From NCBI GenBank assembly GCA_028873535.1, contig JAGWIJ010000004.1:313-64312 (forward strand): a DNA stretch of 64,000 nt, in the 5' to 3' direction. The DNA comes from Pseudomonadota bacterium. GTDB taxonomy: Bacteria > Pseudomonadota > Gammaproteobacteria > Burkholderiales > Ferrovaceae. The notes beneath the pieces were generated by a model. The model did no database searches. It saw nothing but the letters and a program-made list of their open reading frames with translations, and was not told where the DNA came from. This document shows positions 1 through 20,444 of this stretch, in pieces. Position 1 is the stretch's first letter; each line of letters starts with the position of its first letter. A program made the position numbers and the translations under genes.

Positions 1-264
1 CCAAAATGAAACATCAACCCGCCCTGATGTAACGTCATTTTGAATTTCGATTTAAATTTTTACGGGGTTGCGTCGTTAGCGATTACGGTTAAGCGCTTAC
101 AGCCTATTTGCTGTTGCAGCCTTAGTCTGCATAGCGCGGCAAGAAGGGGTCCGGTGACCGCGACCTTGCTCGCGACCAGGAGCTGCGCGCTGCTGATCGC
201 TGCTGTGACCGTCCCGATTCCCTTGGGGGGGATCGAACTTCCGACTGATTTCAAGGAGAAGTTG

Positions 265-3200
265 ATGCAACACCTGGCCTATCCAGGCACACGAAAGTGG
301 CCGATGATTGCCGCTGCCGTTGCTGCCGTGCTGTTCACGGACGTCAATGTATTTGCCGGGCCGGGTATTGCGCCGGTCTACAGCAAGAACGCCGCGCCGC
401 CGCCCGCTGCACCTGATATCGCGGCGCCGACCTACTTCGCCAACAGCCCGCTGGGTCTGCGCCCCGACCTGATCGGCGGCGCCGGCGCGCCTGGAATCAA
501 CACCGGCGTGGCCATGCGCAAGTTCGTCGATACCCTGCCGGGTGTCGCCGGCTGGGCGCCGACCACCACCATCGGCACCGGCAACATCGGCGGTGTCGCG
601 CCCAAGTACATCCCGGTGGCCGTGCCCAAGACCTGGCCGGCCGACGGCGCCGACTACTACCATCTGGCCATCGTCGAAGCCAGCGAACCCCTGCATACCG
701 ACCTGCCCAAGGCCACCACGCTGCGCCTGTACGTGCAGATCGAGGAGCCGGGCGAGACACCGACGCCAGCCGGCTCGCTGCACGTGCCGCTGTACTACCC
801 GAACGGCACCGCAATCACCCTGCCGGATGGCAATGGCGTCCAGCAGCCGGTGTACGGCTACGACACGCCGCACTACGACGGTCCGATCGTGACCAGCACG
901 CGCAACAAGCCGGTGCGCATCAAGTACTCCAACCTGCTGCCGATCGGCGGTGCGCTCGATGTCTTCGGCAACGGCGTCCCGGGCCGCAACGGCGACCTGT
1001 TCCTGCCGGTCGACGCCACCCTGCCGGGCGGCGCACTGCAGCAGAACCGCGTCGACATCCATCTGCACGGCGGCGTGACGCCCTGGATTTCGGACGGCAA
1101 CCCGCACCAGTGGACCATCCCGGTGGGTGACCCGCGCTTCGGCCTGGTGACCCAGGCGGCCATCACCAATGCCGGCGGCGGCTACAGTGCTGCCCCGGTG
1201 GTGGCCATCGATGCGCCGCAGTCGGTGGCGGTGGCCACGGCCACGGTCGGCTCGACCGCCACTGCGGTCGGCGCCGTGACGGCGCTCAATGTCAGCAATG
1301 CCGGCGCGTTCTACACCGCGGCCACGCCGCCCGCCGTGACGCTGGCGGCGCCGCCCGGACTGGCTGCCGGCGCTGCCGCGCCGGTGGCGGCCTCGGCGAC
1401 TGCCACGGTTGCCAGCGGCAAGGTCGCGACCATCAGCGTGCCCGCTGGTGGTGGTGGCATCGGTTACCCGATCGCGCCGACGCCGGTGGTGTCGGCGCCG
1501 ACGCCGTCCGTCAATGCCACAGCCACTGCCACCCTGGGCGTGGCTGGTGCCAAAGGCGCCACGGTCACGGGCCTGGTACTCGGCGTCGCCACCCCCAACG
1601 TCGGCTACGCCACCGCTCCGGCGGTGAGCATCGGCGCGCCGGCACCCGCGGTCGCGGCCCGCCCGGCGCTCGCCGTGGTGGCCAGCAATGGCAGCCTGAG
1701 CCTCAGCAATCCGGCCAACTTCGGCTATTGGACGGCCCCGGCCGCGCCTGCGCTGCCGGCCCCGAACGCCGCCGTGAATGCCACCGTGACCGGTGCCACG
1801 TTGTCGGTCAATGCCGTCACCGGCAGCCCGCAGCTGGCCACCATCACCGGCCTCAATGCGGCCAACTTCGGCTACTGGCCGGGCACCAACCCGGTCGTGA
1901 CCATTGCCGCGCCGGCGTACACGCCGACCCAGGCCAAGGTCACCAACAATCTCAAGATTTCGACCACGCGCGGCGCCGCCACCGGCACCGTGCTGGCCAG
2001 CGCCGGCAACGCCGGCTACTGGCTGAGGGTGCCGAGCAGCAATGCCAGCAGCGTGGTCAGCGTGTCGGCGCCGCCGGCCAATGTGCAAGCCAACGGCACG
2101 GCCACCGTCGGCCCCAACGGCACCATCACCGCGATCACCCTCGGTGCTGCAGGTCAGGGCTACTTCTCCGGCGCCGGCACCGTCACTGCCACCCTGCCGG
2201 CTCCGGCTGCCGCTGTCACCGCCACGGCCAGCGCCACGCTGAATGCCGGTTCGCTGACCCTCGCGGTCGGCAATGCCGCCACCAACTGGGGCTATTTCAC
2301 GGCACCGCTGGTGACCCTGAGCGGCGGTACCCATGGCGCCGGCACCATCACCGCCACGGCCACCGTGAGCAATGGTCGGGTCACCGCGATCACCTACACC
2401 GGCACCGCCGTCTGGTCGGCGGCGCCGACCGTCAGCATCGCTGCGGCACCCGCCTCGGCCGCAGCCCGGATCAGCGTGATCGCTGCCACCGGCAGCGTTC
2501 CGGCCGTCAGCACCGCCGCCGCGCCGACCGGCAGCTACACCCGTCTGCTCAGCGCCGGCGCCGGCTACGCGCCGAACACCACCATTCCCATCACCTTCAG
2601 CGCACCCAACATCGTTCCGGCAAACGCGGTGGTCACCCCGACCATCGGCACCGGCATCAACGCCGGCCGCATCATCGGACTGGTGCTGAGCGGCGGCGGC
2701 GCGGGCTACGTGACCCCGCCGGTGGTGAGCATCGTCGCGCCGGTTGCCAACCAGACCGCCAGCGCGGCGCTGGTCATGAGCAATGGCAAGATCACCGGCT
2801 TCACCATCAGCGGCGGCGCCAACTACACCACGGCGCCCAAGGTGACGATCAGCGCTGCGACCAAGGGTACCCAGGCCACCTTGACCGCCACGGTCGACGG
2901 GCTGGGCCACCTGAGCTATGCCCTGGCCAACCCGGGCACCGGCTATGCCACGGCACCTGCGCTGGCAGCACCGGCGCCGGTGGCCAGCGTGACGGCAACG
3001 GCCACGGCCAGCGTCAACGCCAGCGGCAGCGTGACCGGCTTCACGGTGACCAACGCCGGCACCAACTACGTGCCGGGCAGCGTGCCGACGGTGACCGTTG
3101 GCAACGCCACGCTGGCCGTGCCGGCCACCGCCACGGCCACCCTCAACCCTGCCACCGGTTCAGTCACCGGCTACACGGTGACCAATGCCGGCTTCGGCTA

Positions 3201-6200
3201 CTGGACGCCACCAACGGTGACGCTGGCGGCCCCGCCGACGCCGATCCAGGCCACCGCCACCGCCAATGTGGCGGCTGACGGCAGCATCGGCGGCTTCACC
3301 ATCACCAACCCGGGCCAGGGCTACACCCTGCCGCCCAGCGTGACCGTGGCCTGGCCCGCGGTGGCAGTGCAGGCCACGGCCAGCGCCACCACCACCGCAG
3401 GCGCCCTGTCCAGCGTGGCCATCACCAACCCCGGCGGCGGCTACACCGCGACGCCCGGCTTCACCATCACCGATGTGAGCGGCAAGGGCGGCATCATCAA
3501 CGGCCTCGTCAGCACGCCGGTCGGGCCGAGCTTCCGCAATGTGCCGGACATGGTCGGCAATCTGGCCGCCGCGCAGGCGCCGGCGTTCTACGTGCCGCCG
3601 GCGACGGGTGAGGGCACGCTGTACTACACGAATCAGCAGACCGGCCGGATCATGTGGTACCACGACCATACCTCGGCGATGACGCGTCTCAACGTCTATG
3701 CCGGCCTGGCCGCACCGTATCTGATCCAGGATCCGGCCATCGATCCCGTGCTGCCGAACGCCGTTCCGGCGGCAGGCGCGCCGGCGCCGGCACTGCAGGG
3801 GCTGGTGCCCGCGGAAACCATCCCGCTGATCTTCCAGGACAAGACCTTCGTGCCGCAGGACATCAACCTGCAGGATGCCTACTGGGACCAGGCGCACTGG
3901 GGCAGCTACGGCGACCTGTGGTTCCCGCATGTCTACGAGACCAACCAGAATCCCTCCTTCCTGCGTAACCTGTCCAACCTGGGGCGCTGGGACTGGGGTC
4001 CCTGGTTCGCGATCGTCTACCCGGCGCAGTACGCGCTGCCGACCGGCCAGTATGGCGACGTGACCACCACGCCGGAAGCCTACCAGGACACCATCGTGGT
4101 CAATGGTGCGGCCTTCCCGACCATCACGGTCGAGCCGCGCGCCTATCGCCTGCGCATGCTCAATGCCGCCAACGACCGTTTCATGAACATCGGCTTCTAC
4201 CTGGCCGATCCGGCCCAGGTGTCGGCGGATGGACGTGCCAACACCGAGGTCAAGACCGGTCCGGCCGGAACCGCGCAGCCGGGGACGGTGGCGGGCGCTG
4301 CGCCCAACGTGTTCCAGTCCAGCGCCACCAGCCAGGCCTATACGCCGTGGCCGAGCGATGGCCGCACGGTGCCAATGCCGACCGAAATGGGTCCGCCGAT
4401 GTTCCAGTTCGCCAACGAAGGCGGCCTGCTGCCCAACTGGGTGGAAGCGGATCCGGTTCCGGTCAGCTTCGACTACAACCGGCGCAGCGTCACCGTGCTG
4501 AACGTGTCGCAGAACAACGACTTCACCCAGTTGTGCTACCCCGAGTGCCACGGCATGTACCTGGGGCCGGCCGAGCGTGCCGACGTGGTGGTCGACTTCT
4601 CGCACTACGCGGGCAAGACGCTGATCCTGTACAACGACGCGCCGGCACCCAACCCTGGCTACGATTCGCGCATCGACTACTACACCAACGACGACCCGGT
4701 CTATCCTGGCACCATCAACTACGCCAATGGTGGCGCACCGAACACGGCGACCGGTTTCGGTCCCAACACGCGCACCATGATGCAGGTGGTGGTTGGCACG
4801 GTGCAGAACGCGGCGGGTAGCCATCCGATCGACTACACGGCGGCCATCAGCCCCACGCCGGCGACCTATATCGATCCGGTCACCGGTGTGCAGAGCGCCC
4901 TGCAAGCCTGGGATCCGAACGCCCTCGGCGCCGGCAAGGTGCTGGGCACGCTCACCACCACGGCACGCGGCCCCCTGCAGACCCTGTATGCGGCTACCCA
5001 GGCGGCGCCGATCGTCGGCGAGTCGGCGTACAACAACGCGCTCAACCAGAGCTATGTCGACCAGTACGGCGGCATGCACCTGGCCTCGGCGGACCAGCCG
5101 GTGTTCTATGTCACCGATCCGGGCCCGCTGACCCTGACCGGCGTGACCCTGGTCGGCACCACGGCCAACGTCAATCCCTCGGGCGTGGCGACCAACGGCA
5201 GCAACCCGAACAACGGCAAGGGTGTCGGTACCGGCTACACGGTCGCGCCGACCGTGGTGCTGTCGCCGCCCAACTGCGTGGCGGGTCCGACCTGCGTGCA
5301 GGCCACCGCCACGGCCACGGTGGCCAACGGCCAGGTGACCGGTGTGACGCTGAACAACGTCGGTGCCGGCTATACCGAGGTGCCGTTCGTGAACTTCGTG
5401 TCGAGCGGCAACCTGACCACCATCTCGGTCAGCAACGGCGGTGCCGGCTACAGCCCGGCCAGCCCGCCCACGGTGACCCTGACCGGTGGCGGCGCCGGTG
5501 CGGCCGGCACGCCGCCGGCGGTCCCGGCCACTGCGGTGGCCACGGTGAGTGCAGCCGGCGTCGTGACCGGCATCACCATCGTCACGCCGGGCTCCGGCTA
5601 CGCCGTGGCGCCCACGGTCACCATTGCCGCGCCCAGCGTCGGCACGGGTGCCAGCGCCAGCGCGGCGCTCAGCGCCACCGGCACGGTGGCGGGTCTGACC
5701 CTGGGCGCCGGCGGCACCGGCTACACGGTGGTGCCGGCGGTGTCGATCCAGGCGCCGGCTGCCTCGGTACCGGCGGCAGCAAGCGCCGCGGTGCCGGTGG
5801 CCGGTGGCGGCATCACGCTGACCACCACCTCGGTGGGCACCAACTACAGCGTGGCGCCCAACGTCACCATCAGCGCACCGCCCAGCGCGACTGCGACCGC
5901 GACCGACACCACCACCTTCCCGGGTTATGGCGCCGGCACCTACGCAGGCCTGGTGCTCAATGCCATCACCGTGACGGGCGGTGGCGCCGGCTATGCGGCC
6001 GCACCTGCCGTGACCATCACCGACCTCGGCGCGACCGGGACCGGTGCTGCCGCCACGGCGACGGTCAGCAATGGCGTGGTCACCGGCATCTCGGTGACCG
6101 CAGTGGGCTCCGGCTACAAGGGTCCGCTTGCGATCAGCGTCGCTCCGCCTGCCGGCCCCTTCACCCCGGCAACGGCGACCGCCACGGTGGTGACCCCCGG

Positions 6201-7572
6201 CGCGGTGCAGCTGACCTTGAGCAATCCGGGTTCGGGCTATGTGGTTGCGCCCAGCGTGACCATCGATCCGCCGCCGGTGGCTACCCAGGCCACGGCCACG
6301 GCCACGGTGGCCAATGGCGCGGTGACCGGACTGACCCTGACCGGCGCCGGCAGCGGCTACACCACGCCGCCGCAGGTGACCCTCAGCAATCCGGCGGCGA
6401 CCAACGCCACGGCCATCGCAGCCGTGACGGGTGGTGGCTACGGCGCGGAAGCCGTCGCTGTGGCGTCCACCACCAAGGTGTTCGCCGTGCCGACGACGGC
6501 GCCGCAGGCGGCCAATTCGGTGCCCTTCACGCTGCCGGCCCTGCCGCCGGGCGGTGTGGTCGGACGCCTGATGAACCCGGCGATCCAGGAACTCTTCGAG
6601 CCCTACTACGGCCGCATGAACGCGACCCTGGGTATCGAGATGCCCTACCAGTCGCTGGCCGTCCAGACCACCGTGCCGCTGAACTTCGTCGACCCGGATA
6701 CCGAGACGATGGAGCCCAATACCGTGCAGATGTGGAAGATCACCCACAACGGCGTGGACGCACATCCGGTGCATTTCCATCTGGTCAACGTGCAGGTGGT
6801 GAACCGGGTGGGTTGGGACGGTACCGTCAAGCCGCCTGAGGACAACGAGATCGGCTGGAAGGAAACGGTCAAGATGAACCCGCTGGAGGATGTCATCGTG
6901 GCGATGAAGGCGGTGCTGCCGCAGGTGCCGTTCGGCGTGGACCATAGCGTCCGCCTGGACGATCCCTCGCAACCGCTGGGCGTGCCGGGTGGCTTCACCC
7001 AGTTCTCGACCCTGGGCCTGAACGGCCAGATCGGGGCGGGTGCCGCAGCGGTCTATCCGCCCAGCATGGTGCCGGTCGCCACGGCCGCAGCGCCGGGCAT
7101 CGGCCAGCCAGCCACCATCGTCAACTCGATCGAGAACTACGACAACGAGTACATCTGGCACTGCCACATCCTGGGGCATGAAGAGAACGACTTCATGCGG
7201 CCGTTCGTGTTCACCACCAGCCCGACGGTGCCTGCTGCCGCGACGGTGACGGCGGTGGGCCAGGCTGCCGCCGCAGGCGCGATCACGGTCAGTTGGACCG
7301 ACCCGACGCCGACCGGTGCCCAGGCCAGCGTGCCGGCAACCTACGGCAATCCGGCCAACGAGCTGGGCTTCCTGCTGCAGCGTTCGACCAGCCCCAACGG
7401 ACCCTGGTTGACGGTGGCGAAGGCGCCTGCCAATGCGGTCAGCGCGGTCGACCCGCAGTACAGCCCGACCACCGCCGGAACGCAGTACTACTACCAGGTG
7501 GTGGGCTACAACGTGGCCGGCAACGGCCCGGGCTCCTCGCAGAGCGTCGCGTCGAGCATCGTCGCCAAGTAA
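265..7572 (+). CDS. Giant secreted multicopper oxidase (2,435 aa), MofA-like, with two internal repeat arrays and an Fn3-like C-terminal domain
   Basis: ATG at 265 lies 5 nt after AAGGAG (254-259). The N-terminus MQHLAYPGTRKWPMIAAAVAAVLFTDVNVFA looks like a Sec signal peptide. All four MCO copper motifs occur in canonical order: HLHGG (nt 1060-1074), WYHDH (3655-3669), HPVHFH (6763-6780), HCHILGHEENDFM (7159-7197). The C-terminus ITVSWTDPTP...YYYQVVGYNVAGNG resembles Fn3. Confidence 0.85.
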   Translation: MQHLAYPGTRKWPMIAAAVAAVLFTDVNVFAGPGIAPVYSKNAAPPPAAPDIAAPTYFANSPLGLRPDLIGGAGAPGINTGVAMRKFVDTLPGVAGWAPTTTIGTGNIGGVAPKYIPVAVPKTWPADGADYYHLAIVEASEPLHTDLPKATTLRLYVQIEEPGETPTPAGSLHVPLYYPNGTAITLPDGNGVQQPVYGYDTPHYDGPIVTSTRNKPVRIKYSNLLPIGGALDVFGNGVPGRNGDLFLPVDATLPGGALQQNRVDIHLHGGVTPWISDGNPHQWTIPVGDPRFGLVTQAAITNAGGGYSAAPVVAIDAPQSVAVATATVGSTATAVGAVTALNVSNAGAFYTAATPPAVTLAAPPGLAAGAAAPVAASATATVASGKVATISVPAGGGGIGYPIAPTPVVSAPTPSVNATATATLGVAGAKGATVTGLVLGVATPNVGYATAPAVSIGAPAPAVAARPALAVVASNGSLSLSNPANFGYWTAPAAPALPAPNAAVNATVTGATLSVNAVTGSPQLATITGLNAANFGYWPGTNPVVTIAAPAYTPTQAKVTNNLKISTTRGAATGTVLASAGNAGYWLRVPSSNASSVVSVSAPPANVQANGTATVGPNGTITAITLGAAGQGYFSGAGTVTATLPAPAAAVTATASATLNAGSLTLAVGNAATNWGYFTAPLVTLSGGTHGAGTITATATVSNGRVTAITYTGTAVWSAAPTVSIAAAPASAAARISVIAATGSVPAVSTAAAPTGSYTRLLSAGAGYAPNTTIPITFSAPNIVPANAVVTPTIGTGINAGRIIGLVLSGGGAGYVTPPVVSIVAPVANQTASAALVMSNGKITGFTISGGANYTTAPKVTISAATKGTQATLTATVDGLGHLSYALANPGTGYATAPALAAPAPVASVTATATASVNASGSVTGFTVTNAGTNYVPGSVPTVTVGNATLAVPATATATLNPATGSVTGYTVTNAGFGYWTPPTVTLAAPPTPIQATATANVAADGSIGGFTITNPGQGYTLPPSVTVAWPAVAVQATASATTTAGALSSVAITNPGGGYTATPGFTITDVSGKGGIINGLVSTPVGPSFRNVPDMVGNLAAAQAPAFYVPPATGEGTLYYTNQQTGRIMWYHDHTSAMTRLNVYAGLAAPYLIQDPAIDPVLPNAVPAAGAPAPALQGLVPAETIPLIFQDKTFVPQDINLQDAYWDQAHWGSYGDLWFPHVYETNQNPSFLRNLSNLGRWDWGPWFAIVYPAQYALPTGQYGDVTTTPEAYQDTIVVNGAAFPTITVEPRAYRLRMLNAANDRFMNIGFYLADPAQVSADGRANTEVKTGPAGTAQPGTVAGAAPNVFQSSATSQAYTPWPSDGRTVPMPTEMGPPMFQFANEGGLLPNWVEADPVPVSFDYNRRSVTVLNVSQNNDFTQLCYPECHGMYLGPAERADVVVDFSHYAGKTLILYNDAPAPNPGYDSRIDYYTNDDPVYPGTINYANGGAPNTATGFGPNTRTMMQVVVGTVQNAAGSHPIDYTAAISPTPATYIDPVTGVQSALQAWDPNALGAGKVLGTLTTTARGPLQTLYAATQAAPIVGESAYNNALNQSYVDQYGGMHLASADQPVFYVTDPGPLTLTGVTLVGTTANVNPSGVATNGSNPNNGKGVGTGYTVAPTVVLSPPNCVAGPTCVQATATATVANGQVTGVTLNNVGAGYTEVPFVNFVSSGNLTTISVSNGGAGYSPASPPTVTLTGGGAGAAGTPPAVPATAVATVSAAGVVTGITIVTPGSGYAVAPTVTIAAPSVGTGASASAALSATGTVAGLTLGAGGTGYTVVPAVSIQAPAASVPAAASAAVPVAGGGITLTTTSVGTNYSVAPNVTISAPPSATATATDTTTFPGYGAGTYAGLVLNAITVTGGGAGYAAAPAVTITDLGATGTGAAATATVSNGVVTGISVTAVGSGYKGPLAISVAPPAGPFTPATATATVVTPGAVQLTLSNPGSGYVVAPSVTIDPPPVATQATATATVANGAVTGLTLTGAGSGYTTPPQVTLSNPAATNATAIAAVTGGGYGAEAVAVASTTKVFAVPTTAPQAANSVPFTLPALPPGGVVGRLMNPAIQELFEPYYGRMNATLGIEMPYQSLAVQTTVPLNFVDPDTETMEPNTVQMWKITHNGVDAHPVHFHLVNVQVVNRVGWDGTVKPPEDNEIGWKETVKMNPLEDVIVAMKAVLPQVPFGVDHSVRLDDPSQPLGVPGGFTQFSTLGLNGQIGAGAAAVYPPSMVPVATAAAPGIGQPATIVNSIENYDNEYIWHCHILGHEENDFMRPFVFTTSPTVPAAATVTAVGQAAAAGAITVSWTDPTPTGAQASVPATYGNPANELGFLLQRSTSPNGPWLTVAKAPANAVSAVDPQYSPTTAGTQYYYQVVGYNVAGNGPGSSQSVASSIVAK
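1150..3480 (+). repeat. Coding repeat array 1 inside the MCO: about 18 degenerate modules with core N-x-G-x-G-Y-x3-P-x-V-[TS]-[IL]-x2-P
   Basis: Counted by eye in the translation, e.g. ITNAGGGYSAAPVVAIDAP, LSNPANFGYWTAPAAP, VLSGGGAGYVTPPVVSIVAP, VTNAGFGYWTPPTVTLAAP, ITNPGQGYTLPPSVTVAWP, ITNPGGGYTATPGFTITD. The array lies between copper motif 1 and motif 2. Boundaries are approximate. Confidence 0.75.
5210..6470 (+). repeat. Coding repeat array 2 inside the MCO: about 10 modules of the same type
   Basis: Examples: GVGTGYTVAPTVVLSPP, LNNVGAGYTEVPFVNF, VSNGGAGYSPASPPTVTL, IVTPGSGYAVAPTVTIAAP, LGAGGTGYTVVPAVSIQAP, LSNPGSGYVVAPSVTIDPP, LTGAGSGYTTPPQVTLSNP. Modules are often preceded by ATATATV-x-NG-x-VTG. 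The array lies between the second and third cupredoxin domains. Boundaries are approximate. Confidence 0.75.
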
Positions 7573-7588
7573 TCGTCGCAGGCAGTAC

Positions 7589-7615
7589 GGCAGGGCTCGC
7601 CGCCTGAGCCCTGCC
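7589..7615 (+). terminator. GC-rich hairpin 17 nt after the MCO stop (possible attenuator or partial terminator, no T-tract)
   Basis: GGCAGGGCTC-gccgcct-GAGCCCTGCC forms a 10-bp perfect stem. Two further hairpins follow at 7631-7644 (GGACC-GCAA-GGTCC) and 7692-7709 (GCGGCGCC-ca-GGCGCCGC). Confidence 0.35.
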
Positions 7616-7753
7616 GGCAGCACCCGGACTGGACCGCAAGGTCCGGTCGCCGCACCGGGCGGCGAGTCCTTCCCGGCCCCGAATATCCGGGGCGGCGCCC
7701 AGGCGCCGCTCCATCCCCGCTTCCTGCCTCACTTGTTCCGGAGTTGCACGTTC

Positions 7754-8500
7754 ATGAAAGCATTGCTCAGAATGTCCTTGCTCGTGGCCTGCCTGAATGC
7801 CGCGCTGGCCTGTGCTGCGGATGCCACGGCCACCCCGGCGGCCGCGCCTGCCAGCGCCGGCACGCCGGCCTTCACCAGCCAGAAGGACCGCATCAGCTAC
7901 GCCGTGGGCGTCTCCACCGGCCGCGCCCTGCGCACGGCCGACGGCGCCGAAGTCAATCTGGACAGTCTGGTGCGCGGACTGCGCGATGCGCTCGAAGGGC
8001 GCAAGCTGCAGATCCCGGACCGCCAACTGTCCGAATTGATGGGCGAGTTCCAGCAGACCCTGCGCCAGAAGATGGCGGCCTCGCGCGGCCACGCCATCAT
8101 CGAGAATCGCGCTGCTGCCGAGGCCTTCCTGGCCCAGAACAAGGTCAAGGAAGGCGTGGTCACGCTGGAAAGCGGCGTGCAGTACCGCATCCTGGCGACC
8201 GGCCAGGGCCCGATGCCGCAGGAGTCCGACGAGGTGCTGGCCAAGTACCACGGCGCCCTCCTGAACGGACAGGAGTTCGACGCCACCGAAGAAGGCCATC
8301 CGGCACGCATGCGCGTGTCGCAGCTGATCCCGGGCTGGCGCGACGCGCTCAAGCACATGCCGGTCGGGTCGCACTGGCAGATTTTCGTGCCGCCCCAGCT
8401 CGCCTACGGTGAGCGCGGCGTTGGCGCCGAGATCGGCCCCAACGAATTGCTGGTGTTCGACGTCGAACTGCTGTCGGCCAAGCCGGCCGCGCTCGACTGA
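7754..8500 (+). CDS. Periplasmic FKBP-type peptidyl-prolyl cis-trans isomerase (Mip/FkpA-like; MofB-like position)
   Basis: ATG at 7754. Signal peptide MKALLRMSLLVACLNAALACAADA. The FKBP C-domain shows GVQYRILATGQG...VLAKYHGALLNGQEFD...QLIPGWRDAL..MPVGSHWQIFVPPQLAYGERG...IGPNELLVFDVELL. Confidence 0.85.
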   Translation: MKALLRMSLLVACLNAALACAADATATPAAAPASAGTPAFTSQKDRISYAVGVSTGRALRTADGAEVNLDSLVRGLRDALEGRKLQIPDRQLSELMGEFQQTLRQKMAASRGHAIIENRAAAEAFLAQNKVKEGVVTLESGVQYRILATGQGPMPQESDEVLAKYHGALLNGQEFDATEEGHPARMRVSQLIPGWRDALKHMPVGSHWQIFVPPQLAYGERGVGAEIGPNELLVFDVELLSAKPAALD

Positions 8501-8511
8501 GTTCGCAGCCG

Positions 8512-10566
8512 ATGCCTGCCGTCGTGCCGTTCTTGCGCGTGTTGCCGCAGCGCCAACGCAGCACGCCGCTGCTGCCGCAGTGGGCGCTGTGCGGCTGCCT
8601 GCTGCTGGCCGCCGTGATGCTGCGGCCGGCACCGGCGCTGGCGGCGTCCGCCAGCGAGAGCGCCGCTGCCATCCAGGCGGCGGTGGCGCGCTCGGCCCAG
8701 GCACCGGGTACGCCGCCGGCTGCGGTGGCGGCAGCGCCTGGCGCGACGGGTCTGGCGGTGGCCGAAGCAGCGCCGTTGACGGCGGCCGACCGTGCACGTT
8801 ATCTGGCGCAAGGTCGACGCCTGTACCGCGACGGCGTGCGCCACGACGGCTCGCAGGTGCAGGCCTCACGCGTCGGTGCCGCTGCCGGTCAGTGGCAGGC
8901 GCCGGCCTGCGTGAGCTGCCACCGGCCCAGCGGCATGGGCACGGTGGAAGGCAACATCCAGGTGCCGCCGATCAACGGCCGCGCCCTGTTCGCGGGCGAA
9001 CGTCTGCGCGAGCGCGTGATCGTCTCGCTTGATCCGCGCCGTGGCCGCCTGTTCAATCCTTCGCACGCTCCCTACGATGCGGCCTCGCTGCTGCAGGCGG
9101 TGGCGGCCGGCGTGCATGTCAGTGGCCGCGCCATGAATGCGCTGATGCCGCGCTACGCCGTGGATCGAGAAGACATCCAGGGCTTGATGATCTATCTGTC
9201 GACCCTGTCCGACGCCGACGCGCCTGGCGACCGCGACGGTCACCTGCGCTTTGCCACCGTGATCACGCCCGAGGTGACGCCGGAGCGGCGCGCGATCTTC
9301 CTGGAGAATCTGCGCGCGGCCTTCGACCAGAAGGAAGGCGGTACGCTGCCCGGCAAGCGCCACATGGCGAGCGCCGCCGAGATGATCTATCGCACCGAAC
9401 GCCACTGGGACCTGGACGAATGGCAGTTGTCGGGGCCGGCGTCGGAATGGATGGCGCAGATGGATGCGCTGTACGCACGCCAGGCAGTGTTCGCGCTGGT
9501 GTCCGGGCTGGGCGAGGGCGAGTGGTCGCCGGTCCAGGCCTGGTGCGAGGCCCGCCAGGTGCCGTGCTGGTTTCCCAGCGTCACGGCGCCGCCGCCGGCC
9601 GGCGACACTTTCTATTCGCTCTATTTCTCGCGCGGCGTGCTGCTCGAAGCCGACGTGATGGCCACGACGATCGGGCACTGCGCCGCGGGCAGCCGGGTGG
9701 TGCAGTGGGTGGCCGACGATGCTGCGGCACGCGCGGCGGCGGCGCGCCTGGCCGCTGACCTGGCGGCCTCGGACTGTCAGGTGGTCGCGCAGGACGAGCC
9801 GGGTGCCGACGACATCCTGGTGCTGTGGCAGCGCGCCGATGGGCTGGCGGCGCTGGGGGCGCCACCTGCGGCGCGGCGGATCCTGGCCTCCGGCCAGCTC
9901 GCCGGCGACGAGCGCGCGCCCCTGCCGGCGGCCTGGCGGCCGCGCACCGAACTCGTGGTGACGCGCGAACTGCCGGCGCGTCGTGGTCAGAATCTGGCCA
10001 CCTTGCACTCCTGGCTGGCGATCCGTGGGCTGGCGCTGCGCGACGAGGCGCTGCAGTCCGAGGTTTTTTTCGCCTTCAACTATCTGCAGAACACCCTGAC
10101 CGACATGCTGGACAACGTGTATCGCGATTTCCTGGTCGAGCGTGGCGAGTCGATGCTCAACCGTCGCGAAGCGCAGCGTGCCGAGGAAGAGACCATCACG
10201 CGCATGCAGGGCCATCCGCCGGCGCCCAGCGTGGCGGCGGCCTCACGGCTGGCGCCGGGCGCGATCTTCGGCGCCGATCCGGATGGGCCGCTGGCCCAGC
10301 GCAACACGCCGGCCTACCTGTCACGCAGCGGCACCACCATCTATCCGCATCTGGGATTGGCGCCCGGCCAGCGCTTCGCCTCGCGCGGCGCCTATCTGGT
10401 CAGGCTGTCAGCCGCGGGCGCTGCCGACCCGGTGATGCAAGCCAGCGCCTGGATCGTGCCGGACATTGTCGGCAGCGAAATCGCGGGCCGTCTCGCCGCT
10501 GCTGCACCGGCTGCGGATGCGCTTTCTTCACACCACCCCATCGGAGTTGCTGCCCATGCGCCGTGA
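8512..10566 (+). CDS. Secreted mono-haem cytochrome c domain fused to a large (~500 aa) uncharacterised domain (MofC-like position)
   Basis: A single CxxCH haem-binding motif (ACVSCHRPSGMG) lies in a typical context (GRRLYRDG...). The N-terminus is hydrophobic with ALA|AS. The rest is unassigned and may be periplasmic-binding-protein-like. The gene starts 11 nt after the FKBP stop. Confidence 0.6.
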   Translation: MPAVVPFLRVLPQRQRSTPLLPQWALCGCLLLAAVMLRPAPALAASASESAAAIQAAVARSAQAPGTPPAAVAAAPGATGLAVAEAAPLTAADRARYLAQGRRLYRDGVRHDGSQVQASRVGAAAGQWQAPACVSCHRPSGMGTVEGNIQVPPINGRALFAGERLRERVIVSLDPRRGRLFNPSHAPYDAASLLQAVAAGVHVSGRAMNALMPRYAVDREDIQGLMIYLSTLSDADAPGDRDGHLRFATVITPEVTPERRAIFLENLRAAFDQKEGGTLPGKRHMASAAEMIYRTERHWDLDEWQLSGPASEWMAQMDALYARQAVFALVSGLGEGEWSPVQAWCEARQVPCWFPSVTAPPPAGDTFYSLYFSRGVLLEADVMATTIGHCAAGSRVVQWVADDAAARAAAARLAADLAASDCQVVAQDEPGADDILVLWQRADGLAALGAPPAARRILASGQLAGDERAPLPAAWRPRTELVVTRELPARRGQNLATLHSWLAIRGLALRDEALQSEVFFAFNYLQNTLTDMLDNVYRDFLVERGESMLNRREAQRAEEETITRMQGHPPAPSVAAASRLAPGAIFGADPDGPLAQRNTPAYLSRSGTTIYPHLGLAPGQRFASRGAYLVRLSAAGAADPVMQASAWIVPDIVGSEIAGRLAAAAPAADALSSHHPIGVAAHAP

Positions 10567-17167: not shown

Positions 17168-18873
17168 ATGCAACTCTCAGGCGCCGATATCACCCTGCGC
17201 TGTCTGGCAGAGGAAGGTGTTGAGTACATCTTCGGCTATCCAGGCGGCGCCGTCCTCTACATTTACGACGAAATCTTCAAGCAGGACAAGGTCAAGCACA
17301 TCCTGGTGCGCCATGAACAGGCGGCCGTGCACGCTGCCGACGGCTACGCGCGCAGCTCCGGCCGGCCGGGCGTGGCGCTGGTCACCAGCGGCCCCGGCGT
17401 GACCAATGCCGTCACCGGCATTGCCACCGCCTACATGGACTCGATCCCGCTGGTGATCATCAGCGGGCAGGTGCCCACGCGTGCCATCGGCCTGGATGCC
17501 TTCCAGGAAGTCGACACGGTCGGCATCACGCGGCCCTGCGTCAAGCACAACTTCCTGGTCAAGGACGTGGCCGAGCTCGCCACCACCATCAAGAAGGCCT
17601 TCTACGTCGCCACCAGCGGCCGGCCGGGCCCGGTGCTGGTCGACATCCCCAAGGATGTCAGCGCGCAGCTCACCGAGTACAGCTATCCCAAGAGCGTCAC
17701 CATGCGCTCCTACAACCCGGTCACCAAGGGGCACGCCGGCCAGATCAAGAAGGCCGTGCAGATGCTGCTCGAGGCCAGGCGACCGATGATCTATGCCGGT
17801 GGTGGCGTGGTGCTGGGCGAAGCCTCGCCGCAGCTCACCGAGCTGGTGCGCCTGACCGGCTATCCCTGCACCAACACCCTGATGGGCCTGGGCTGCTATC
17901 CCGCCACCGACCGCCAGTTCGTCGGCATGCTGGGCATGCACGGCACCTACGAGGCCAACCTGGCCATGCAGGGCTGCGACGTGCTGCTCGCGGTCGGCGC
18001 GCGTTTCGACGATCGCGTGATCGGCAACCCCGAGCACTTCTACCAGCCTGGCCGCCGCATCATCCACATCGACATCGATCCTTCGTCGATCTCCAAGCGC
18101 GTCAAGGTGGACGTGCCCATCGTGGGCAACATCGCCGATGTCGTCGACGAGATGCTGCGCCAACTGCGCGCCAGCGAAGCGCGGCCCGACGCCGCAGCGC
18201 TGGCGGCGTGGTGGGCGCAGATCGAGGAATGGCGCAAGCGCGACTGCCTGCGCTACGACCGCAGCAGCGAACTGATCAAGCCGCAGTCGGTGGTCGAGGC
18301 GCTGTACCGGGTCACCAACGGCGATGCCATCATCACCTCGGACGTGGGCCAGCACCAGATGTGGGCAGCGCAGTACTACAAGTTCGACAAGCCCCGTCGC
18401 TGGCTGAACTCCGGTGGCCTCGGCACCATGGGCTTCGGCCTGCCGGCGGCGATGGGCGCGCAGTTCGCCTTCCGCGATGCCACGGTGGCCTGCGTCACGG
18501 GCGAAGCGAGCATCCAGATGTGCATCCAGGAGCTCTCCACCTGCAAGCAGTACCACCTGCCGGTGAAGATCGTGAACCTCAACAACCGCTATCTGGGCAT
18601 GGTGCGCCAGTGGCAGGAACTGCAGCACGGCAACCGCTACTCCGAGTCCTACATGGAGGCCCTGCCGGACTTCGTCAAGCTGGCCGAGGCCTACGGGCAC
18701 GTGGGCATGCGCATCGAGCGCCCGGCCGACGTCGAGGGCGCGCTGCGCGAAGCATTTGCCCTCAAGGACCGAACCGTGTTCCTCGATTTCATGACCGACC
18801 AGGCCGAGAACGTCTTCCCGATGGTGCCGGGCGGCAAGGGACTCACCGAGATGATCCTCGGATCGGAGGACCT

Positions 18874-18877
<4 letters not shown>
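17168..18877 (+). CDS. ilvI: Acetolactate synthase large subunit
   Basis: The N-terminus MQLSGADITLRCLAEEGVEYIFGYPGGAVLYIYDE and the ThDP motif GGLGTMGFGLPAAMGA are present. An alternative in-frame ATG lies at 17153. Confidence 0.93.

Positions 18878-20444
<1,567 letters not shown>

Follow-up and report, generated by a model that had tools for sequence, protein, structure and literature searches.

The 64,000-nt window analysed here (positions 313 to 64,312 of contig JAGWIJ010000004.1, assembly GCA_028873535.1, from a Pseudomonadota bacterium of the family Ferrovaceae) carries near its beginning a mofA-like gene for a giant multicopper oxidase (MCO), whose copper-binding core is interrupted by two arrays of a short repeated module. 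The gene occupies positions 265..7572 of the forward strand, from an ATG at 265 to a stop at 7572, and encodes 2,435 amino acids (aa); a Shine-Dalgarno-like AAGGAG, read directly from the sequence, lies 6 nt 5' of the start codon (253..258, forward strand). An earlier first-pass annotation, made from the sequence alone, had described a single open reading frame (ORF) of this length, and the same ORF is found in NCBI, where MDE3009448.1, from a 65.8-kb contig of a metagenome-assembled genome (MAG), is an identical protein with the same start under the name 'multicopper oxidase domain-containing protein [Pseudomonadota bacterium]'. The translation, inspected by eye, begins with a probable Sec signal peptide, MQHLAYPGTRKWPMIAAAVAAVLFTDVNVFA, followed by G at the putative cleavage site and without a twin-arginine motif (265..357, forward strand).

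The four His-rich ligand motifs of multicopper oxidases (HxH, HxH, HxxHxH and HCHxxxH) are present in canonical order, as the annotation had stated, beginning at aa 266, 1131, 2167 and 2299. Motif 1, HLHGG (aa 266-270; 1060..1074), and motif 2, WYHDH (aa 1131-1135; 3655..3669), both belong to cupredoxin domain 1 and align to H105/H107 and H153/155 of CotA, respectively. Motif 3, HPVHFH (aa 2167-2172; 6763..6780), lies in domain 3 and aligns to CotA H419-424, and motif 4, HCHILGHEENDFM (aa 2299-2311; 7159..7197), aligns to CotA H491-497; these and all further features of the oxidase gene are on the forward strand. When the protein was compared with the Cu-oxidase profiles of Pfam, Cu-oxidase_2 matched with 38 bits (cut-off 20.4), the Cu-oxidase (domain 2) profile gave no match, and Cu-oxidase_3 reached 13.7 bits, under its cut-off of 21. 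The latter score counts against a complete MCO core; the weak domain-1 match is attributed to array 1, which splits domain 1 and thereby penalises the profile. In NCBIfam, PhsA and CueO were matched in part.

The best-matching solved structure is that of CotA (E = 1e-31), with six colinear stretches that include aa 244-284 with CotA 79-123, aa 1118-1158 with CotA 138-178, aa 1430-1470 with CotA 291-334, and aa 2141-2206 with CotA 393-471. For structure prediction, both arrays were spliced out and the remaining 1,176 aa were modelled with AlphaFold 2 (AF2) using 39 natural relatives, which gave a predicted template modelling score (pTM) of 0.78 and a mean predicted local distance difference test score (pLDDT) of 66, with both splice junctions in low-confidence loops. 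A Foldseek search of this array-free core against the PDB placed CotA entries first (E = 2.6e-30), with target TM-scores of 0.74-0.79 over the whole CotA chain. Alignment and model thus bear out the proposal of a three-domain core split by two arrays, and according to the model the catalytic part is an intact three-domain CotA-like MCO core on which the arrays are surface insertions. At the type 1 (T1) copper, the axial Met502 of CotA (HEDYDM502M) aligns to Phe2310 (HEENDFM) and not to a Met, and motif 4, axial Phe included, is identical in the MofA/OmpB relatives examined. A non-coordinating T1 axial residue is typical for high-potential laccases.

Cupredoxin domain 2 with its family-specific insertions (aa ~1160-1627; 3742..5145) was delimited from stretches 3 and 4 of the CotA alignment and from the array-free core model. 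Through insertions that occur family-wide it is about three times the size of its CotA counterpart, and these insertions include the conserved sequence WDxxHWGxxGDLWFPHVYETNQ and two cysteines spaced as CxxxC (C1424, C1428); another pair of cysteines, C1671 and C1677, is found at the start of array 2. The protein ends in a putative Fn3-like domain (aa ~2325-2435; 7237..7569). This earlier assignment has weak support: the model places seven strands in the region, and the Pfam fn3 profile reaches 13.7 bits, under its cut-off of 25. This C-terminus aligns to the first post-catalytic domain of the relative P0018 (E = 2e-13), and while the window oxidase has one such domain, many relatives have several.

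The modules were counted with a profile hidden Markov model (HMM) of 44 positions, which was built from copies first located by eye. In the window oxidase it finds 27-28 copies with independent E-values down to 1e-15, and it finds no copy in any other ORF of the six-frame translation of the 64-kb window. Array 1 comprises 18 modules, 17 of them firm and one weak (aa 277-1071; 1093..3477), and array 2 comprises 10 (aa 1628-2044; 5146..6396), in agreement with the 18 and 10 copies estimated by eye. The modules are 40-50 aa long rather than 40-75 aa as first described, since each of two long gaps conceals one degenerate copy. At the protein level the copies share a mean identity of 31-37% and at most 60%, those of array 1 are no closer to one another than to those of array 2, and no DNA tandem repeat of the module period was found when looked for. 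The hallmarks GxGY and PxVT are near-invariant. Both arrays are rich in Thr, Ala, Gly and Val, with an invariant Tyr, and are depleted of charge (Asp+Glu 0.8-1.0%, Lys+Arg 0.5-1.9%, His nearly absent), compared with 7-9% Asp+Glu in the core.

The two arrays occupy different kinds of site, so that their original placement in inter-domain linkers holds for array 2, which lies in the linker between domains 2 and 3, and fails for array 1, which lies in a surface loop inside cupredoxin domain 1. Array 1 stands in place of CotA residues ~124-137, a loop of about 14 residues between the strands bearing motifs 1 and 2, and a junction alignment with the array-free sister P0018 places it at '...HQWTxPxGD-[array]-xxKGxSFxNVPDM...'. 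In Leptothrix- and Rubrivivax-type proteins the same loop holds 25-35 extra residues.

Because the source is a MAG, it had to be considered that the arrays are an artefact of assembly or annotation, be it through collapse or expansion of a repeat or through the joining of genes that are in fact separate. This is scarcely credible. An independent Logan assembly, SRR21686664, contains a colinear 96%-identical ortholog of equal length, with zero indels and the same neighbouring genes, and full-length relatives of 2,653 and 2,680-2,687 aa were found repeatedly across many separate assemblies. The DNA-level divergence of the repeats is too great for mis-assembly, the reading frame is unbroken with high GC content at third codon positions, and both arrays are flanked by copper motifs in the correct order. 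Between the window gene and the 96% ortholog, the ratio of non-synonymous to synonymous substitution rates (dN/dS) comes to 0.093 in array 1 and 0.072 in array 2, compared with 0.069 in the core, at a synonymous divergence (dS) of about 0.22-0.30. The arrays are therefore real and constrained as strongly as the enzyme, and the view that the modules are diverged at the DNA level, old, and maintained is upheld.

We then sought to place the oxidase among its relatives. A protein search yielded hundreds of relatives of 1,350-4,000 aa from Leptothrix, Rubrivivax, Gallionella, Ferrigenium, Dechloromonas, and Geomonas, with homology over the full core to a Leptothrix sp. protein (P0084, E ≈ 1e-208), to a protein of Rubrivivax A210 (P0086), and to Geomonas 'laccases' (P0078, P0079). 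The family set forms one tree; L. discophora SS-1 MofA and GSU1394 were outside this comparison. The window oxidase is a probably secreted multicopper (metal) oxidase of the MofA/OmpB family.

For the distribution of the arrays, 120 relatives were examined, with modules counted between sequence anchors. Only P0001-P0017 have an array between motifs 1 and 2, with 7-26 modules, and in all other relatives this site is a gap of 14-52 aa with 0 modules. Between motifs 2 and 3, 0-24 modules occur family-wide, for example 6 in the Leptothrix sp. protein and 4 in the Rubrivivax A210 protein. The architecture had been called non-textbook, which is true of array 1, confined to this 17-member clade, and not of array 2, which is an old, variable trait of the whole MofA/OmpB family. 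In a tree of the array-free cores, the array-1 proteins are monophyletic and their sister lacks the array; array 1 therefore arose once and was later expanded and contracted. Core identity within the clade is 52-69%, array 1 is kept in 17/17 members, and all copper ligands are kept in every one. Two further relatives, P0029 (4,038 aa) and P0059 (4,058 aa), have 33-34 modules ahead of the core on its N-terminal side and 4 more in the linker between domains 2 and 3, and thus three different module sites exist within the family. Even for relatives scored with 0-2 modules, a trace of GxGY...PxV persists in the alignment consensus of the linker between domains 2 and 3, and judging from this sequence trace at least one linker module may be ancestral to the whole family.

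The module itself matches no Pfam family and no PDB entry. Against Pfam at E ≤ 10 it gave noise only (Gp18_dom_I at 0.026, DUF4971) and no Ig-like family, and the array 2 sequence had no match among PDB sequences. A four-module stretch was modelled with AF2 from an alignment of 47 paralogous, non-overlapping four-module windows, which gave a mean pLDDT of 83.8 and three strands per module, corresponding to ATATAT, VTGxTVT, and PTVT. Mean-field covariation analysis of 1,890 di-modules identified pairs between strands 2 and 3 (22-39), between strands 1 and 2 (11-23/25, 10-22), and in loops (8-28, 31-42), which were found independently in both halves of the di-module, together with a few inter-module pairs (A39-B10, A41-B4, A34-B14). 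This covariation suggests that neighbouring modules pack against each other. Some results limit this picture: the pTM of the four-module model is only 0.46, so that the arrangement between modules is uncertain; Foldseek found no match to it in the PDB with E < 3; and couplings between the same positions of neighbouring modules may reflect module subtype rather than contact. Against BFVD, Foldseek returned weak matches to cyanophage structural proteins with poor TM-scores, which probably reflect local sequence and 3Di repeat similarity and not a common global fold.

When 1.84 billion representative proteins were searched with the module profile, 20,793 matched at E ≤ 1e-3, of which 1,953 reached E ≤ 1e-30. 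Among the 150 best matches, about 135 are proteins other than MCOs; most of these lack a Pfam domain, and one is a T4 gp15-type tail-sheath stabiliser. Array 2 also matched PHROG virion-protein families with E-values from 5.7e-25 to 1e-11; PHROG 460, 701, 5342, 19630, 2885, and others contain the module, and the annotations of the matched families include head closure, baseplate wedge, tail fibre, and structural proteins. In the isolated Pseudomonas phage PseuP_224 (OP795451.1), the tail tube protein WAK44865.1 (L013 201-926) carries two modules in mid-protein; this tail tube is of the lambda type, and the modules are missing from its HK022 and mEpX2 homologs. A tblastn search with array 2 against annotated phage genomes gave no match, probably owing to the low-complexity filter, and the phage link came via the PHROG profiles and the PseuP_224 tail tube protein used as query. 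The module is a decoration unit, so far without a name, that can be inserted into loops and recurs promiscuously in extracellular and virion proteins.

Array 1 has an internal order. Modules of the GY[W/F] kind are enriched in its N-terminal half, and its C-terminal half is uniformly of the GxGY-T type. Near the centre (aa ~688-733; 2326..2463) a Gly-rich, Pro-free linker, TLSGGTHGAG, is followed by a variant module ending in TGTAVWSAAPTVSI, which reads GGTxxxG...GTxV[Y/W] and has no GxGY. This linker and variant module lie at a fraction of 0.46-0.55 of array 1 in 13/16 clade members, and the variant module is central whether the array spans 584 or 1,090 aa. Because a loop insertion must come back to its origin, the central position of the variant module suggests that array 1 folds back as a two-armed hairpin with the conserved variant module at its tip, a reading taken from sequence features. 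Against this stands a hypergeometric estimate that random loss of modules, starting from a centred ancestor, leaves the arms balanced to within ±1 in about 60% of events. Balanced arm lengths had been considered as proof of the hairpin and were downgraded for this reason.

The most far-reaching form of this proposal would make array 1 a self-returning, two-armed antenna of a new and very widespread adhesion fold that phage virions also have, in which an aromatic N-terminal arm and a GSGY-type C-terminal arm of matched length, linked by the conserved tip module, would pair in antiparallel fashion, project tens of nanometres out of a cupredoxin domain, and dock the oxidase onto sheath or extracellular polymeric substance (EPS) polysaccharide or onto oxide surfaces. 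We consider this antenna unlikely; if true, it would provide a molecular answer to the matrix-binding of MofA-type Mn/Fe-oxidising activity.

Downstream of the oxidase gene, and likewise on the forward strand, lie a mofB-like gene for an FKBP-type peptidyl-prolyl isomerase of 248 aa with Pfam FKBP_N and FKBP_C domains (7754..8500, start according to the gene call of the ortholog) and a mofC-like gene for a protein of 684 aa with one CxxCH haem motif, CVSCH (8512..10566), a homolog of which also adjoins the genes of relatives. The start of the mofB-like gene is most likely the ATG at 7754 and not the start of a longer ORF at 7433, which overlaps the oxidase gene, and its N-terminus, MKALLRMSLLVAC, resembles a lipoprotein signal (..LLVAC, lipobox LVAC). 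A scan for an intrinsic terminator between the mofA-like and mofB-like genes found none. The 181-nt spacer (7573-7753) contains GC-rich inverted repeats, for instance GCAGGGCTC...GAGCCCTGC near 7590-7615, with no T-tract terminator, and is compatible with co-transcription or an RNA-level control element. The order oxidase, FKBP, CxxCH is the same at the locus of the 96% ortholog, and the window oxidase heads an operon of the mofA-mofB-mofC type, which the first-pass annotation had missed. This arrangement is known from Leptothrix discophora and relatives (PMC8218464, PMC5566968), MofC has been described (PMC5566968), and MofA is homologous to Geobacter OmpB, with Fn3 domains in both (PMC8218464, PMC5566968). 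The remaining genes of the window are housekeeping genes such as ilvC, acetolactate synthase, lptG, proS, obg, nrdA, and others. A different layout is seen in the lake MAG Umea3_bin-2771 (CAISEB010000051.1, L001 36-18884), which has two giant oxidase paralogs of the array-1 type in tandem, in the order mofC-like (36-1736), P0014 (2528-9073; 2,182 aa), P0009 (9980-17932; 2,651 aa), mofB-like (18264-18884).

The explanation that in our view best covers the whole, and which we hold with moderate confidence, is that a MofA/OmpB oxidase bears two protruding module arrays that would tether the enzyme multivalently to polysaccharide or oxide surfaces. In this proposal the oxidase would be secreted, with catalysis, for which Mn(II) or Fe(II) are candidate substrates, residing in the CotA-like core, and both arrays, leaving and re-entering the compact fold, would form protruding surface appendages. 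The stalk suggested by the first-pass annotation is topologically unlikely; the arrays are taken as appendages because both begin and end on the compact CotA-like core and thus have both ends fixed, which makes them excursions and not spacers that would separate the enzyme from an anchor. The scaffold for binding polymer or mineral surfaces that the same annotation had proposed is close to the reading preferred here. They would act as multivalent, low-affinity, avidity-driven adhesion surfaces, a role suggested by their Thr-, Asn-, and Tyr-rich uncharged sheets, their multivalency, their core-level conservation, and the phage parallel. The target may be a polysaccharide, as in sheath, stalk, EPS, or the cell surface, or the hydroxylated surface of an oxide, and an enzyme tethered there would stay where its product is deposited. 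On the other side, the case for adhesion is drawn wholly from composition, topology, and analogy with phage decorations, and MofA as a Mn oxidase is putative in published work and was never genetically proven; Fe(II) has also been raised as a possible MofA substrate in recent work. A scaffold that binds cations through charged side chains was rejected, given at most 1% Asp+Glu and almost no His in the arrays.

Other roles can be envisaged for the arrays. As inert, uncharged, hydrophilic bristles without a specific ligand, they might shield the core from newly formed Mn/Fe oxides or neighbouring proteins and so prevent encrustation, and the near absence of charged residues and His, their emergence from the core surface, and the occurrence of relatives in lineages that oxidise iron and manganese and are known to face encrustation would all fit such a function. 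We nevertheless hold shielding to be unlikely, since a constraint equal to that of the enzyme core and near-invariant GxGY and PxVT are more than a passive brush requires, and mineral shielding hardly makes sense on phage virions, where the same module is found. Thr arrays of antifreeze proteins dock onto ice, and in a comparable manner Thr/Asn ladders on flat β-sheets could bind or template mineral by docking onto hydroxylated Mn/Fe oxide, nucleating or orienting its deposition. Alternating-Thr β-strands (ATATAT, VTGxTVT, PTVTI) are predicted in every module and the host belongs to an extracellular metal-oxidase family; yet the arrays offer no acidic or His residues to bind cations, the module is far commoner in non-oxidase and phage proteins, and the literature searched offered no experimental precedent, which makes templating quite unlikely. 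Finally, the arrays might be near-neutral repeat expansions at permissive loops that contribute only their own folding. Their copy number does range widely, from 7 to 26 in array 1 and from 0 to 24 in array 2, and the domain-1 loop is permissive, as the extra residues in Leptothrix- and Rubrivivax-type proteins show. Such neutrality is nonetheless very unlikely in view of the dN/dS of 0.07-0.09 with zero indels at a dS of about 0.25, the lack of recent duplications (copy identity ≤60%), the retention of array 1 throughout its clade, and its conserved polarity and central landmark.

In iron-mat Leptothrix, the genes for MofA-type oxidases rank with those expressed most highly (PMC11412304), and variable arrays of a discrete, conserved module provide a concrete hypothesis for the localisation of such oxidases to sheaths and oxides. 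That a cupredoxin domain tolerates an array of about 800 residues between two of its sets of copper ligands makes this an extreme example of domain insertion, with relevance to protein engineering. With occurrences in more than 20,000 protein clusters and neither a Pfam model nor a solved structure, the module is a candidate new family and a structure target. Earlier work covers the family, the operon, and the Fn3 tail, and NCBI already lists the protein, though with a generic name. An array inside a copper-binding domain appears to be new; no description of the module, of its arrays in MofA-type proteins, or of an array in cupredoxin domain 1 was found in the searchable literature.

Of the known systems, MofA of Leptothrix discophora, a putative Mn(II) oxidase, is likewise a giant secreted MCO with four ordered motifs. 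MofA-type relatives have a motif 4, HCHILGHEENDFM, identical to that of the window oxidase, the mofABC operon has the FKBP isomerase gene mofB and the cytochrome-c-like mofC downstream as in the window, and the domain 2-3 linker of MofA-type proteins from Leptothrix sp. and Rubrivivax A210 already contains 4-6 such modules. The window oxidase differs in belonging to another sub-clade, with about 36% identity to the MofA type (L. discophora SS-1 MofA itself being outside the comparison), and in its 18-module domain 1 array, where the MofA type has only those 25-35 extra residues. OmpB of Geobacter sulfurreducens is another member of the family, which ends in an Fn3-type tail and whose gene has a mofC-like neighbour; it is an outer-surface MCO needed for Fe(III) oxide reduction, so that its published role is reduction and not oxidation. 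The Geomonas 'laccase' relatives of 1,425 aa, unlike the window oxidase, have no modules at either array site.

The three-domain laccase/bilirubin oxidase type, represented by CotA (PDB 1GSK), shares the core fold and, according to the model, the copper-ligand geometry of the window oxidase, but CotA measures 513 aa against 2,435, with a 14-residue loop at the site of array 1, a short linker at that of array 2, and Met502 rather than Phe as axial residue. Ig-like decoration domains on phage virions (Big_2, I-set, Fn3), for which a Hoc-type adhesion role has been considered, are also small β-units that vary in number, sit at termini or in loops, and occur promiscuously across unrelated hosts. 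The window module, with its ~43 aa and three predicted strands, behaves like such a decoration but is half the size of the seven-stranded Ig-like/Fn3 sandwich of ~80-100 aa and is not a member of that group. The six-domain MCOs of the MnxG/Mnx complex and ceruloplasmin type, some of which are Mn(II) oxidases, are likewise enlarged beyond three domains; whereas MnxG and ceruloplasmin grow by added cupredoxin domains, the window oxidase grows by arrays of a non-cupredoxin repeat.

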